DNA from: Alphaproteobacteria bacterium
Lineage (GTDB): Bacteria; Pseudomonadota; Alphaproteobacteria; GCA-2731375
Length of the DNA stretch: 64,000 bases
Reading direction: 5' to 3'
Assembly (NCBI GenBank): GCA_965225945.1
Contig: CBDDBZ010000023.1
Location: 1 to 64,000 of the forward strand
Every line of letters begins with the position of its first letter. The first letter of the stretch is position 1. Below, one piece after another: positions 2 to 5,131 of the stretch. The translations under genes were made by a program, and so were the position numbers. The notes below the pieces were generated by a model, which was not told the origin of the DNA, ran no database searches, and saw only the letters and a list, made by a program, of their open reading frames with translations.

Positions 2-559
2 CTGATGGCGGCGGCGGTGGAACGCTTCGGCGCCCTTCACATTCTCTTCAACTGCGCCGGCGGCTCGGTGCTGGAGGACACCAACGTCACCGAGGTCGAG
101 ATGGAGGTCTGGGACCACACCATCTCGCTCGACCTCAAGGGACCGTTCCTCTGCGCCCGCCACGGCATCCCGAAAGTGATCGAGAGCGGCGGCGGCGCCG
201 TGATCAACGTCGCTTCCGTGGTGGCGCTTCGTGGCAACCATCCGGCGCACGTCTATTCGGCGGCCAAGGGCGGCATCATTTCCTTCACCCGCAGCCTCGC
301 CGGCGCCTATGCCGACCAAGGCGTGCGCGCCAACGTGATCTGCCCCGGGCTGGTCAAGACCGAACGGGTCAGGGCGCGCTACATCGAGCGGCGGCCCAAC
401 AGCAGCCGCAAGGGCGCGGTCGAAACTTTCCAGGAATATCCCTTCGGCGTCGGCGAGCCGGAGGACATCGCCAACATCGCCCTCTTCCTCGCTTCCGACG
501 AGTCTCGCATGGTCAACGGCGCGGTGATCCCGGCGGAAGGCGGGATATCGGCGTATTGA
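2..559 (+). CDS. SDR family oxidoreductase (5'-truncated by window edge)
   Basis: NCAG, NVASV, catalytic YSAAK, VRANVICPG, C-terminal G..I..EGG motifs. Confidence 0.9.
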   Translation: MMAAAVERFGALHILFNCAGGSVLEDTNVTEVEMEVWDHTISLDLKGPFLCARHGIPKVIESGGGAVINVASVVALRGNHPAHVYSAAKGGIISFTRSLAGAYADQGVRANVICPGLVKTERVRARYIERRPNSSRKGAVETFQEYPFGVGEPEDIANIALFLASDESRMVNGAVIPAEGGISAY

Positions 560-789
560 TCGTCGGCCGAAACATGGCCGGGCATGGCCTTCACGCGAGG
601 ATGGGTAGCGTCGCGAGATGGGAGTCGAAGGCGCCGGCCATGGGGTGCGGCCGGAGAAGCCCGGGGAGGTGAACCGCGGGGCGCGCGAATTTCCGCACAC
701 GCCTGATCTTTCGGCCATCGCGATACGGGCGTGGCCCCGCCGCGCGAATTTGCTATCCTGCGCCGGACGGTAAAGCCGAGGAGAACCAT

Positions 790-1308
790 ATGCGCATCGT
801 CAATCCATCCTTCGGCCTCGCGTCGGAAGCCGACGTGGAGAGCGAAACCCGGCCGGTCGATTGGTCGCGCGATTCCCTCATTCTGTTCGGCAACGCCAAG
901 CCCAACGCGCGGGAATTGCTCGAGGGCGTTCGCGCTTCGATGGCCGCCTTTCGCTCGATCGAGGAGATCGCGTTCGTCGCCAAGGACAGCCCGGCCCTGC
1001 CGGCGCCGCCGGAGATGATCGAGAACATCGCCCAAACCCATCGGGCGGCGCTTCTCGCGCTCGCGGATTGAGGCGCCTGCTCGTCGTGGAGTTTCCATGA
1101 CAGCATCGAACTCGAAAAGCGCGGTGTCGAGAGCTACCTGGTCACCACCAAGGTCTTCCTGCCGCTCGTCCTGGCCCAGGCCCGAGCGCGCAACGTCACG
1201 CCCAAGCTCCTGGTGGTGAGCCACCCGGTCGGCGGGCTGAACGCGGAGGAACTGGGCGAACGCATCGAGGTCGCGTCCGCCGGCCTCAGGGAGGCGATCG
1301 GCGTCTGA
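790..1308 (+). CDS. UGSC-family selenoprotein (Sec at UGA 1069-1071), 172 aa
   Basis: N-part has NAKPNARELL; in-frame TGA gives LAD-U-GACSSWSFHDSIELEKRGV...VVSHPVGG, open to TGA 1306-1308 with GC-typical codons; GAGGAG RBS; hairpin downstream of the UGA. Confidence 0.85.
1078..1105 (+). promoter_or_regulatory. Putative bacterial SECIS hairpin
   Basis: tgct-c-gtcgtgga [gtt] tccatgac-agca; G-first apical loop 19 nt after the UGA. Confidence 0.65.
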
Positions 1309-1412
1309 CGCGGCCGCGTGGCGATCCGCTGGGCCGCCCGATCGGTTGCCCAATGGGCCGCCGCTTCGGCGAGCCGTGAGGAATGCCGCGGGCGCGAGGG
1401 ACGGGGACGGGG

Positions 1413-2453
1413 ATGACGGATACGATCGATGCCGAGGTGATCGAGCTGGACGATCTCGGCCCCGGCGAGTGGAACGACTACGCTATCGAGCGGGGCTGGA
1501 GCGACGGCTTCCCGCTGGTGGCGCCGACGGAAGACGCGGTCGAGCGATTCATCGAGACCTGTCGCGGCGACAACGAGCCCCTCCCGCCGATGTCGCCCCG
1601 CCGGGTGATCCCGACGCTGCGGAGCCTCGCCGCCAACGCGGTCATGGCCGGTTGCCGGCCGGAATACTTCCCCGTCGTGGTGGCTGCGGCGCGGGCCGTG
1701 CTGAGGCCCGAATACAACCTCCACGGCGCGCTGGCGACGACGCATTCCTGCGCCCAGATGCTGCTGCTCAACGGGCCGCTGCGCGCGGCGCTGGAGATCA
1801 ACTGTTCCTCCAATTGCTTCGGCCAGGGCTGGCGGGCCAATGCCACCATCGGCCGGGCCCTGCAGTTGGTCCTGCTGAACATCGGCGGCGCCAAGCCCGG
1901 CGTGATGGACCGCTCGACCCAGGGCACACCGGCGAAATACGCCTTCTGCTTCGGCGAGAACGAGGAAGAGAGCCCGTGGGAGCCCTATCACGTGCGCCGG
2001 GGCTTCGCGGCGGGCGACAGCGTGGTGACGGCGATCCCCGCCGAGGCACCGCACAACATCAACGACCACGCCAGCACCACCGGCGAGGGCATCTTGACCA
2101 CGATCGCCGGCACGATCTCCCAGGTCGGTGCCAATTCGATCTATTGCACCGCGCCCTTCTTCGTGGTGCTGGGTCCGGAGCACGCCGCCACGATTCACCG
2201 CGACGGCTGGACCATTCCCGACATCCAGGCCCGCATCCATGAACAATCGGCGGTCCATGTCTCCCGCGTCTCGGAGGAGAACCAGGCGAGCTACGCAGGC
2301 ATGGAACGGCCGCTGGTCGGCGAGCATTACCCGCTGACGCCGACGCCGGAGGACATCCAAATCCTGGTCGCCGGCGGGCCAGGCAAGCATTCGGCCTACA
2401 TTCCCCCCTTCGGCTTCACGCAGGCCTGCTCCGTGCGCGTCGCCAACCTCTGA
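1413..2453 (+). CDS. Uncharacterised UGSC-associated protein (paralog 1)
   Basis: GWSDGFPLVAPT, AVMAGCRPEY, GWRANATIGRA, QGTPAKYAFCFGE, VAGGPG motifs; family typically found beside UGSC proteins. Confidence 0.75.
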   Translation: MTDTIDAEVIELDDLGPGEWNDYAIERGWSDGFPLVAPTEDAVERFIETCRGDNEPLPPMSPRRVIPTLRSLAANAVMAGCRPEYFPVVVAAARAVLRPEYNLHGALATTHSCAQMLLLNGPLRAALEINCSSNCFGQGWRANATIGRALQLVLLNIGGAKPGVMDRSTQGTPAKYAFCFGENEEESPWEPYHVRRGFAAGDSVVTAIPAEAPHNINDHASTTGEGILTTIAGTISQVGANSIYCTAPFFVVLGPEHAATIHRDGWTIPDIQARIHEQSAVHVSRVSEENQASYAGMERPLVGEHYPLTPTPEDIQILVAGGPGKHSAYIPPFGFTQACSVRVANL

Positions 2454-2466
2454 GGCGCCCCACTCC

Positions 2467-3438
2467 GTGGACGAACTGCCGGTCATTGCCGAGACGGTGG
2501 CCTGGGAAGCGGCCCAGGGCGAGCTCGAGGCCCGCGGCTTGAGCGACGGCCTGCCGTTGGTGCCGCCGACGCCGGCGCGACTCGAGGCGATGCTGGCCGG
2601 GGTCCGGGCGCCCGATCGCAGCCTTGGGCCGGTGCCGCCGCTGTTCGGTGAATTGACGGCACGATCGGTGGCATATATGTGCGTCCTCGCCGGTTGCCGA
2701 GCGGCCGAATTGCCGCTGGTTCTGAGCGCCGCCGAAGCCTGCCTGGCACCGGAGTTCAACCTGCTCGGCCTGCTGACCACCACGGGCACGCCGGCGGTGG
2801 CGGTGATCGCGCACGGGCCGCTCGGCGCCAAGTTGAAAATGAATGCCGCCACCAACTGCCTCGGGCCGGGCAACCGCGCCAACGCCTGCGTCGGCCGGGC
2901 GGTGAGCCTGGTGATGCGCAACATCGGCGGCGCCAGGGCCGGCGTCGGCGACATGGCGACCATGGGCCAGCCCGGCAAATACGGCTTCTGCTTCGCCGAG
3001 AGCGAGGAGACGATCGTGCCGCCGCTGCACGTGCGCCGCGGTCTCGAGGCGGGGCTGGGCGCGGTCACGGTGCTCGGCGTCTCGGGCACAATCGAGGTGC
3101 TCCCGGACGGCGCGGGCGACAGCGCGGAAGCCGTGCTCGATCCCCTCGCCAGGGTGATGGCGGCGGCGCTCGCCGTCTCGGGCGCGGCCAAGGGTCGGGA
3201 TCGGGGCGAGCAGGTGTTTCTGTTGCCGCCGGAGCTGGCGCAGCGGCTGCGGGATCACGGCTGGGACCTCGCCCGGATCCAGGCGCATTTGTTCGAGCGC
3301 GCCGAGGCGCCGGCGTCCGCGCCCGAGGCGATCCACCCGGTGGTGACGGGCGGTGCTGGGGTGAAGATGACCCACCTGCCGCTCTGGGGCGGCGGCACGA
3401 TCCCCCGGACGCGCGCGCTTCTCGATCCGGGCGCTTGA
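2467..3438 (+). CDS. Uncharacterised UGSC-associated protein (paralog 2)
   Basis: GLSDGLPLVPPT, VLAGC, GNRANACVGRA, GQPGKYGFCFAE, VTGGAG; clearly homologous to the upstream ORF. Confidence 0.75.
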   Translation: MDELPVIAETVAWEAAQGELEARGLSDGLPLVPPTPARLEAMLAGVRAPDRSLGPVPPLFGELTARSVAYMCVLAGCRAAELPLVLSAAEACLAPEFNLLGLLTTTGTPAVAVIAHGPLGAKLKMNAATNCLGPGNRANACVGRAVSLVMRNIGGARAGVGDMATMGQPGKYGFCFAESEETIVPPLHVRRGLEAGLGAVTVLGVSGTIEVLPDGAGDSAEAVLDPLARVMAAALAVSGAAKGRDRGEQVFLLPPELAQRLRDHGWDLARIQAHLFERAEAPASAPEAIHPVVTGGAGVKMTHLPLWGGGTIPRTRALLDPGA

Positions 3439-3452
3439 TCGACGCTGTGGCC

Positions 3453-3481
3453 TTGACGGCCCGCGCGGCGTTCGCTATTGC
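3453..3481 (+). promoter_or_regulatory. Putative sigma70 promoter of the tRNA
   Basis: TTGACG-N17-TATTGC about 37 nt upstream of the tRNA. Confidence 0.4.
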
Positions 3482-3517
3482 GGACGGCGCGGACGCTCGC
3501 CGTCCATGCGCCCATGT

Positions 3518-3592
3518 GCCGCCGTAGCTCAGGGGTAGAGCACACCCTTGGTAAGGGTGGGGTCGAGTGTTCAATTCACTCCGGCGGCACCA
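3518..3592 (+). tRNA. tRNA-Thr(GGT)
   Basis: Acceptor GCCGCCG/CGGCGGC-ACCA, D-arm TAGCTCAGGGGTAGAGC, anticodon arm CACCC-TTGGTAA-GGGTG, T-loop GTTCAATTC. Confidence 0.97.
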
Positions 3593-3737
3593 TCAACTCC
3601 TTGTTTTATAAGGGGTCTCGTCTGGGCGGCAAGACGCAAAACGACGGTACCTCGTCGGAACATCCGGGCCGTGACGTGTCAATTTCGAGACATTCATCCC
3701 GGCGGTTAGGAGCGCGTTCCACCGCTACGAACATTAT

Positions 3738-4731
3738 CTAATTCTCGCTTCTGAAATGGAATGATTCCAACGACACGGTATAACGGCTATCGTCGCCGTG
3801 ATAGCGAATACAGTATTTGGTGGGGTAGGAGCCCGCGATCTCCCAGACTCGTGGCATCTTCAGGTCCGCGCACATCGTGGGTCGGCTGGCCAGATAGGCG
3901 CGCGTGATCATCGGCTCGTAGAAGGTGATGTGGCCGTCGAAGGCGCCAAAAATGAAGGTATGGGTAAATGGCGGGCCGTTCTTCGCCAGTTCGGGCGACT
4001 TGGCGTCGATGAGGTGATTGCCCATATCCGGGACCGCGGCACCGACATCGATGTGATCGCGATGGCGGTATTTCGCCGGCACCGGCTTTTGAGCCCGCTC
4101 GAAGTCGCCGCAGTCGATGAGTTCGCTGCATTTGCCCGCTCGGATCGCGCGTACGGCCTCGCGTTCTTGGATATAGAAGTGAAAACCGAAATGCGGAACC
4201 GCCCAGGGCGGCGGTGCGGGATGTGGGTGGCCTGCTGGATTCCAGTTGACTCCGATCCACTTGAACGGTGCGTCGGTACGGCTGGTCAATTCATCGGGCA
4301 AGAGCAAAGATCAGCTCGTAGTCGCCGTTGCATTCGCCCTTCGCGTCGATCTTGCCGTTGCCGTTCTTGTCGAAGCAGCGGCTGTATGTATTGGGGACGC
4401 GCGGTAAACCTTCGAGCATGGCTTCCTCGAAGCTGACGCCGAGCGCCTGTAGCTTGCCGTCGGCTTCGAATTCCATGTAGACCCGGGCGGAGCCATTGCC
4501 CAGCGCCCGCCCGCCGTCGTAGATGGTCTCCGCACTCGCCGTCCGCGTCGTCAACGAGATCGTGACAAGTACAGCGCCAAGTATCGGCAATACATCGCTC
4601 GGCCTCGGGGCGGAGCCATTGCCCAGCGCCCGCCCGCCGTCGTAGATGGTCTCCGCACTCGCCGTCCGCGTCGTCAACGAGATCGTGACAAGTACAGCGC
4701 CAAGTATCGGCAATACATCGCTCGGCCTCAT
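3738..4731 (-). pseudogene. DUF5602-like exported protein, frameshifted near 4300 and carrying a 123-bp N-terminal duplication
   Basis: Two overlapping ORFs (4291-4788, 3738-4307); NWNPAGHP, PHFxFHFY, VPDMGNH, TFIFG, FYEPMIT motifs. Confidence 0.65.
4485..4729. repeat. Exact 123-bp-period tandem duplication
   Basis: 4485-4606 repeated at 4608-4729; duplicates the signal-peptide region in frame. Confidence 0.95.
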
Positions 4732-5131
4732 CGCTTTCTCCTTGCCTCGTTCCTCGAGCTTCCCGGATTGCCTACATAGACGTCGCAAACTTACCTCGGC
4801 AACCGTCGGCCACGAGATTTCGCCTGGCTTGCCCGCCGGCCAAACATTCTAATTCTCCAACAGCTGGGCGAGGTAGTCTAGCGCGATGGTGAAGGGCGGA
4901 ACAGGGGGTCGTCCATGCCACCTGAATGCCGGACGATGTTCACGCCTCTTCGCAAACGCCGACGACGACTCCAGCACCCGAACCCTCGCCCTGAATTTCA
5001 GGTGTCGGTTTTTATCACTTTCGCAAGCTCATCGAGCTGGGTTGTGCCAATGAATTTGAGGAGGTAATATATCCCTCCTTGATGGTGGAGTTCCGGTAAT
5101 CAAAAGCAAATGGAAGGATGGGAGATTCGCA

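Follow-up and report, generated by a model that had tools for sequence, protein, structure and literature searches.

The window, by which we mean the whole stretch of 64,000 nucleotides analysed here (positions 1-64000 of an alphaproteobacterial contig), carries at positions 790-3438 a real three-gene unit, made of a UGSC-family gene with an in-frame TGA, read here as a selenocysteine (Sec) codon, and of two genes, A and B, that code for paralogs of its partner protein family (Table 1). The arrangement is well beyond chance, since it recurs in public genomes. With this UGSC gene a known family gains a further member, and the enzyme that it probably forms with A and B is uncharacterised. We consider it reasonably probable that the unit is one operon for a Sec-dependent reductase of unknown substrate, an enzyme best described as a variant of the Sec-dependent reductases typified by protein B of the glycine (Grd) and proline (Prd) reductases. 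The region upstream of the unit is truncated by the contig start.

Table 1 Features of the three-gene unit, in window coordinates
Feature	Position	Strand	Description
UGSC-family selenoprotein gene	790..1308	+	172 aa, Sec at codon 94, true stop TGA 1306-1308
Partner A gene	1413..2453	+	346 aa, His-rich, 'catalytic-looking' paralog, unnamed 'Unknown_1' family
Partner B gene	2467..3438	+	323 aa, GTG start 13 nt past the A stop; diverged paralog
Sec codon (Sec94)	1069..1071	+	in-frame TGA
SECIS-like hairpin	1078..1105	+	fold of the window sequence and RNAalifold consensus

The UGSC gene and its partner genes

In the list of open reading frames (ORFs), the UGSC gene appeared as a 93-aa ORF (790..1071, plus strand) closing at the TGA 1069-1071. 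Translated with this TGA as U, the frame was open for 78 further codons, up to the TGA 1306-1308, and the product reads ...LALAD-U-GAC-SSWSFHDSIELEKRG... around the Sec residue. This product matched the Pfam family PF24696 (UGSC) with an E value of 9.7e-29 and 101.1 bits (gathering cut-off 25), residues 3-163 lying on model positions 2-163 of 172, i.e. across the TGA and over most of the model. The first-pass annotation, made from the letters of the DNA, had claimed a frame hidden behind a TGA, with a UxxC motif, in a UGSC-family Sec gene miscut by gene callers, and the Pfam match across the TGA of the full-length product bears this out. The word hidden holds for the gene callers, which cut at the TGA, but not for the family and its fusion, which the available part of a 2008 paper already presents (PMC2398784, Fig. 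S1A). With the known family, as far as the accessible parts of its descriptions go (PF24696; NF041046; PMC2398784; PMC1976440), the window gene shares the UxxC motif at the Sec position, a hairpin resembling a selenocysteine insertion sequence (SECIS) and a length of ~170 aa; it differs in having U-G-A-C instead of U-G-S-C.

An alignment (A3) of 40 UGSC sequences, all of them matching PF24696, showed U or C in the Sec column of all 40 and Cys97 conserved at 90% or more. Conserved residues after Sec were C97, W100, D104, L108, G112, F123, H145 and P146, and on our reading of this alignment the part past the TGA is the better-conserved half with respect to orthologs. Protein A was used as query to gather 80 public loci, of which 75 contained a UGSC homolog. 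The aligned Sec codon in 76 UGSC copies was TGA in 73 cases, TGC in 2 and TGT in 1, and the ortholog of Geodermatophilus poikilotrophus had TAG at this place (L098:5750-5752, VGD-TAG-GSCSSW). The latter fits the Sec-UAG recoding via tRNA-Sec(CUA) in Geodermatophilaceae, which the available part of PMC5330540 describes for UGSC-motif selenoproteins. The first-pass annotation had proposed to look for homology past the TGA and for Cys or TGA at codon 94 of homologs; both were found, the former in the PF24696 match up to residue 163 with the conserved F123, H145 and P146, the latter in the 73 TGA and three Cys codons (and the one TAG). The motif was spelled UGSC in 61 of the public copies, UGAC in 5 and UGGC in 4. 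The U94-G-A-C97 of the window, where Ala replaces Ser as in 5/75 other copies, is thus a minor natural variant, since UGAC occurs in few other copies. Among 401 sampled genomes from the class Alphaproteobacteria, UGSC was present in 44, and 87 of the 92 UGSC matches listed had a single in-frame TGA.

The TGA is not a sequencing error, because independent DNA and RNA-library contigs keep it: one DNA contig (run X9, 760-1529) and the RNA-library contigs X18 (775-1256) and X19 (776-1295) all crossed 1069-1071 unchanged. As RNA libraries can hold DNA, these RNA-library contigs are only a hint of transcription; they covered little of A and B, most of which was uncovered, and this tells nothing either way. 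The stretch 790-3438 was also found near-identical in 20 public runs from 8 studies, with labels that include sponge metagenome and marine sediment metagenome, and parts of it in three metatranscriptome libraries.

Shortly after the UGA there is a conserved stem-loop, as expected of bacterial Sec decoding. RNAalifold on 72 Sec-form sequences gave a 6-bp stem at window positions 1084-1089/1095-1100, starting 13 nt past the UGA, with the loop AGUNU. This conserved upper stem encloses in the window the loop AGUUU (1090-1094); in the window sequence the stem extends to 1083-1090/1094-1101, with a lower stem at 1078-1081/1102-1105. For the 12-pair structure, 84.4% of the cells were paired, against 20-56% with slid partners, and compensatory changes, affecting both sides, were seen at 7/12 pairs; the observed values were reached in 0/500 shuffles. 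The DNA on the 3' side of the TGA was unusually conserved, with AGT as Ser codon in nearly all Sec forms, and the complementary sequence was missing from all 3 Cys-form genes.

Proteins A and B are paralogs with 40% identity across 257 residues (E 3e-49). They share the motifs SDGFPLVAPT/SDGLPLVPPT, MAGC/LAGC, SNCFGQG/TNCLGPG, RANATIGRA/RANACVGRA and KYAFCFGE/KYGFCFAE, in agreement with the earlier description of two homologous same-strand genes with common motifs. For A, the start at 1413 was preferred over the ATG at 1383, as orthologs begin with MTD. Neither protein matched a Pfam or NCBIfam model at E<=1, and the 51 family members tested (A, B and 49 relatives) gave no recurrent Pfam match at E<=10, PF09338 included. 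The family is large: at least 7,963 homologs were found for A, all annotated as hypothetical and without Pfam domain, and 2,400 for B at E<=1e-20, likewise all hypothetical. The 51-member profile hit 7,870 clusters at 50% identity at E<=1e-3 and 2,527 at E<=1e-30. In the Protein Atlas only unnamed clusters were matched, one of them (score 0.89) with PF24696 on 16% of its members.

Residues D31, G32, P34, P38, R148, D166, K175 and E182 were invariant across A, B and the 49 relatives. The only Cys residues conserved at 90% or more across the family were C81 and C179 of A, so that the earlier label of a Cys-rich partner does not hold. Among A orthologs, H104, H111, H193, H214, H219, H257, H326 and C179 were invariant, and five of these, H104, H111, H214, H219 and H257, align in B to L, G, non-His, non-His and L, respectively. 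This conservation pattern suggests a catalytic subunit and a diverged structural one, and A and B may form a heterodimer.

The partner family is a near-obligate partner of UGSC. Of the 80 public loci, 75 had a UGSC gene as immediate neighbour of A; two of the other five are cut at the contig start, and in three (L066, L069, L118) A stood without UGSC within the 6 kb flank, hidden Markov model (HMM) search included. In the 401-genome sample, where 5 candidates were scored per genome and related genomes are not independent, the A family was present in 43 genomes, all among the 44 that bear UGSC, and never alone; in the sole UGSC genome without A family, the contig that bears UGSC is only 1,674 bases long. 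The genome studied here has six UGSC genes, each with an in-frame TGA, and every one of them adjoins an A-family gene. The order is A then UGSC on contigs C14, C30 and C39; contig C20 carries a single-ORF UGSC-A fusion with MAGL instead of MAGC in the partner domain, and contig C5 a UGSC-A' fusion followed by A'' and then a thioredoxin reductase (TrxR)-like gene. A survey of 40 longer-than-usual A-family representatives found a UGSC domain, in either order, in 30: 18 were full UGSC-A fusions, 8 began inside UGSC just past the Sec site, and 4 were A-UGSC proteins terminating at UGSC position 92. One each carried Pyr_redox_2, FeThRed_B and AhpC/Redoxin, and 7/40 had no Pfam match.

Adjacency, co-occurrence and fusion thus bear out the proposal that two paralogs partner UGSC. 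The further idea of a paired A+B partner stands for one subfamily only: a B-type gene followed A in 33/80 loci, nearly all of them among the closer alphaproteobacterial loci L063-L100, but most others had UGSC with one partner, as did the distant loci of Beta- and Gammaproteobacteria, Methylomirabilota/Rokubacteria, Chloroflexota and Neobacillus. A scan of 500-3700 found no promoter-like site and a single terminator-like one, which lies on the minus strand; shuffled sequences gave as many.

The available part of the 2008 study of the Global Ocean Sampling (GOS) metagenome by Zhang and Gladyshev counted 255 UGSC Sec sequences, which places UGSC among the most abundant selenoprotein families of aquatic metagenomes, and presented UGSC/'Unknown_1' fusion selenoproteins (PMC2398784, Fig. 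S1A). The Unknown_1 alignment printed there (AVNGVMAGCRPEYMP...) is plainly of the same family as partner A (ANAVMAGCRPEYFP...). In the window, unlike in the GOS fusions, UGSC and partner are encoded by genes of their own, and a duplication of the partner has given the His-rich A and the diverged B. Two fusions of the GOS type also occur in this genome, those of contigs C20 and C5. As far as its available text goes, PMC2398784 gives the fusion only, with no near-obligate adjacency, co-occurrence or TrxR-like neighbour. The accessible parts of PMC2398784, PMC13188914, PMC9312934, PMC1976440 and PMC5330540 likewise give, for UGSC, no function, obligate pairing or TrxR-like neighbour, and the function was still called unknown in the parts at hand of reviews from 2022 and 2026 (PMC9312934, PMC13188914).

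Relation to GrdB/PrdB and the proposed reaction

GrdB is the selenoprotein B of glycine/sarcosine/betaine reductase and PrdB that of D-proline reductase (Pfam PF07355). The UGSC profile was aligned with hhalign to an alignment (A6) of 16 Sec regions of the GRDB family, which gave a probability of 92.9% and an E value of 3.7e-7 over 59 columns; the Sec residues of the two fell together, and HP(L)G was matched to (F/H)PLG. Common to the two Sec regions are a beta-strand, U-x-x-C-T, (L)E-x-x-G-(I/L)-P-T and HP(L)G. By this match UGSC is distantly homologous to the portion of GrdB/PrdB that bears Sec; it would work like PF07355 proteins but is not counted as a member of that family. The differences are also clear: the N-terminal region of GrdB is absent from UGSC, no GrdA is involved, and the partner of GrdB/PrdB is a pyruvoyl proprotein of the GrdE/PrdA type, whereas A matches no Pfam family, PF09338 included. 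GrdB/PrdB is found in amino-acid-fermenting anaerobes, whereas many UGSC carriers are alphaproteobacteria. In hhalign controls, A itself showed no relation to UGSC or to the GrdB region (probabilities of 0.06% and 0.09%). Self-cleavage of the pyruvoyl type at the conserved A-G-C of A is no more than a speculation, as the model places C81 between two helices and the fused C20 paralog has Leu there.

Grd and Prd are re-reduced by a thioredoxin-type system. A TrxR-like gene of the Pyr_redox_2 family, coding for 290-330 aa, adjoined the UGSC module in 27/80 loci, mostly directly upstream and on the same strand. Its products have an N-terminal GxGxxG and, in the 9/9 inspected, a single CAxC-D motif, as known from TrxB; with Pyr_redox_2 and CAxC-D this flavoprotein is similar to the low-molecular-weight thioredoxin reductase. 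In contrast to the thioredoxin system, the conserved core of the UGSC loci has no separate thioredoxin gene, from which we infer that UGSC may take the place of thioredoxin. In the genome studied here there are two homologs of the TrxR-like gene, on C5 and C6, the former next to the C5 module. The redox role proposed in the first-pass annotation fits these adjacent or fused TrxR-like, ferredoxin-thioredoxin reductase (FTR) beta and peroxiredoxin/thioredoxin (Prx/Trx)-like modules.

The AlphaFold2 (AF2) model of the window UGSC protein had a mean predicted local distance difference test (pLDDT) of 89.8 and exhibited five parallel beta-alpha units, with Sec94 at the N-terminal start of the helix 95-110. 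Its structural neighbours were generic flavodoxin/Rossmann-like chains (VIA Z up to 10.7, 110 chains with Z>=8). A thioredoxin-like fold had been proposed for UGSC in 2008, according to the part of PMC2398784 available, whereas the top 50 Foldseek and VIA rows held no thioredoxin-fold chain, which does not exclude an unlisted family. The AF2 model of A was confident as well (pLDDT 92.3, predicted template modelling score (pTM) 0.91). Against solved structures, its best Foldseek match had an E value of 6.7e-3 with a TM of 0.24, and its best VIA match a Z of 5.8, which is the noise level; the match rows mostly cover residues 135-334. The sequence profile of A against PDB chains gave best E values of 0.26 and 1.3.

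The reaction that we propose would run as follows. The UGA 1069-1071 would encode Sec94, its insertion aided by the hairpin at ~1084-1100, and UGSC would be a flavodoxin-like protein, standing by itself and related to the C-terminal part of GrdB/PrdB selenoprotein B, where Sec is found. Protein A, with its many invariant His, Cys, Asp and Glu residues, would bind the substrate and carry the active site, with B as diverged structural partner. The target of Sec94 would be either the substrate or an oxidised centre of A; Cys97 would then resolve Sec94 to a selenenylsulfide, which the TrxR-like flavoprotein with its CAxC motif would re-reduce with NAD(P)H. In many orthologous operons the gene for this flavoprotein lies directly upstream of UGSC; here it would have to be elsewhere or upstream of the contig start. 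Judged from the neighbouring genes, amino-acid-like and carboxylate compounds, amides and acyl-CoA-linked acids would be candidates for the substrate.

Sec94 might also never meet the substrate. UGSC would then serve only to shuttle electrons, as a selenol/thiol carrier of the thioredoxin kind dedicated to the A/B enzyme, which would have its own redox-active Cys pair or metal centre to be re-reduced by UGSC. The position of the UxxC motif at a helix N-terminus in the AF2 model is consistent with a shuttle, as are the direct fusions of A to a Trx/Prx-like, FTR-beta or TrxR-like module in 3/40 long representatives, the two near-invariant Cys of A (C81 and C179) and the natural Cys forms of UGSC. 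We nevertheless regard a shuttle as unlikely: it is with the catalytic Sec region of GrdB/PrdB, and not with thioredoxin, that UGSC shares remote homology, the top structural matches lacked a thioredoxin fold within the limit given above, and Sec strongly outnumbers Cys among the aligned codons. In selenoenzymes, such a predominance points more often to a residue in catalysis than to one in a carrier.

The weak resemblance of A to class I fumarate hydratase, cyanuric acid hydrolase and chorismate-mutase-like domains (Foldseek values as above; VIA Z 4.2-5.8) would suit a third reading, a non-redox enzyme such as a hydrolase or hydro-lyase that UGSC regulates or matures by delivery of sulfur, selenium or metal. 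The recurrent neighbours other than the TrxR-like gene point the same way, since amidases, amidohydrolases, enoyl-CoA hydratases, family III CoA-transferases and transporters (TctC receptors, LIV-type ATP-binding cassette (ABC) transporters) are often found there. The structural matches are, however, at noise level by the guidance of the tool and the recurrent partners are thiol-disulfide reductase modules. The 1:1 fusion of UGSC and A in either order, moreover, argues for a stoichiometric subunit and not a maturation factor, which makes the non-redox reading very improbable in our view.

Selenocysteine machinery in this genome

The assembly comprises 6.27 Mb in 39 contigs, with 96.55% completeness and 5.58% contamination. 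A tRNA-Sec was found both with Rfam RF01852 (71.3 bits) and with ARAGORN (tRNA-SeC, anticodon tca), directly upstream of a gene for a 738-aa fusion of an oxidoreductase (TIGR03169) with SelD (C30:101434-103873, minus strand). The SelD part scored 287-290 bits against a cut-off of 125 and is fused to the N-terminal pyridine-nucleotide-disulfide oxidoreductase domain. Beside the six UGSC genes, there is a seventh gene with an in-frame TGA, a PrdB/GrdB-like one (PF07355) on C38 near 309457, minus strand, reading ...LLCPV-U-PNC-TT..., whose ortholog adjoins selD in two relatives. All seven exhibited a hairpin ~13 nt past the UGA, with differing sequences, and together they argue, on the evidence of their sequences, for the Sec trait being present.

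Several findings weigh against a Sec-dependent reductase as drawn above. Of the four genes selA, selB, selC and selD, for which a search had been suggested in the first-pass annotation, tRNA-Sec and selD were found but selA and selB were not: no match was obtained in the assembly with the HMMs TIGR00474, TIGR00475, PF03841 and PF09107, nor by tblastn and tblastx with the genes of a same-family relative, and an adjacent selA-selB pair was present in 5/5 relatives checked. At the hairpin, the free energy in the window is ordinary (z -1.05) and conservation is confounded with that of the peptide S-W-S-x-H-D. The UGSC protein stayed below the cut-off of the NCBIfam equivalog NF041046 (UGSC_fam; 98.5 bits against 125, E 3.4e-28, residues 29-163), and because of this score it is filed under the Pfam family and not under the equivalog. 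The hhalign match to GrdB/PrdB is limited to its 59 columns, and with HMMER 0/40 UGSC sequences matched PF07355 at E<=10. There is no TrxR-like gene in the window or beside the loci of the nearest relatives (L063-L066, L081, L095), and the neighbour genes vary between loci. The structural neighbours of the A model are not informative, so that any chemistry or substrate named for the enzyme is a guess.

We read the missing selAB, tentatively, as an assembly gap. A short selAB contig could be missing from the assembly, because the smallest contig retained has 5,356 bases. In two same-family relatives selA-selB lies 4-8 kb from selD, which is not so here, and synteny around selD with these two relatives located no selA/selB remnant or gap in this genome. 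That the TGA is a true stop here, the Sec trait being lost and the module, with its 93-aa fragment, decaying, would agree with this absence of selA/selB from a 96.55%-complete assembly and from the vicinity of selD, but we hold it for the least probable reading, given that in seven genes the TGA is retained and followed by an open frame, with the conserved residues of the family, and by an equally spaced hairpin, that tRNA-Sec and SelD are intact and adjacent, that the part past the TGA is better conserved with respect to orthologs, and that the size of the smallest contig would let a short selAB contig be left out.

Neighbouring genes and significance

The ORF upstream of the unit (2-559) is the C-terminal part of a short-chain dehydrogenase/reductase (SDR), truncated by the contig start. 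The first-pass annotation had suggested that it may belong to the same pathway, and we rejected it as a pathway member: SDR-like ORFs occurred in 8/80 loci only, with at most 37% identity and varying place and strand, so it is not a conserved neighbour. Downstream, a tRNA-Thr gene (anticodon GGT) lies at 3518-3592 on the plus strand, 80 nt past B, and composition and gene content shift beyond it. A 165-aa ORF at 4291-4788 (minus strand) contains a perfect tandem repeat of ~41 residues (RPSDVLPILGAVLVTISLTTRTASAETIYDGGRALGNGSA, twice). Between 6096 and 11999, Pfam identified a PBP-like solute-binding protein, an ABC ATPase, MsrA (PMSR), a luciferase-like monooxygenase and a glutathione S-transferase (GST); only the ABC ATPase class recurs beside UGSC modules.

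Around the UGSC modules of this genome we found a hydantoinase, a MetE-like protein, SDRs and many transposases. Several of the modules (loci L150-L154) are flanked by transposase genes. On C14 (L150:5888-6937, minus strand), the MetE-like gene (Meth_synt_2, catalytic domain of cobalamin-independent methionine synthase) follows directly downstream of UGSC on the same strand.

UGSC has been without a function for about twenty years; it can now be linked to a constant partner family, in many loci to a TrxR-like reductase of its own, and by remote homology to the catalytic Sec region of GrdB/PrdB. The partner family counts thousands of proteins and has a confident predicted structure, but neither a Pfam model nor a relative of solved structure. 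The system is systematically miscut by gene callers, as 12/40 of the long representatives begin or end at the TGA. UGSC with its partner occurs in Proteobacteria, Chloroflexota, Methylomirabilota/Rokubacteria, Actinomycetota and Bacillota, and Vineibacter terrae, Reyranella, Enhydrobacter aerosaccus and Hyphomonas neptunium are named carriers of the orthologous operon. We put forward, as a tentative proposal, that the two might constitute a widespread new class of selenoenzymes, in which the selenium subunit would descend from the catalytic Sec domain of Grd/Prd and the substrate-binding subunit would have a fold without solved relative. Such enzymes, driven by TrxR, would cleave small organic compounds reductively in environmental bacteria with an aerobic life, and the six modules of this genome would then be specialised for different substrates.

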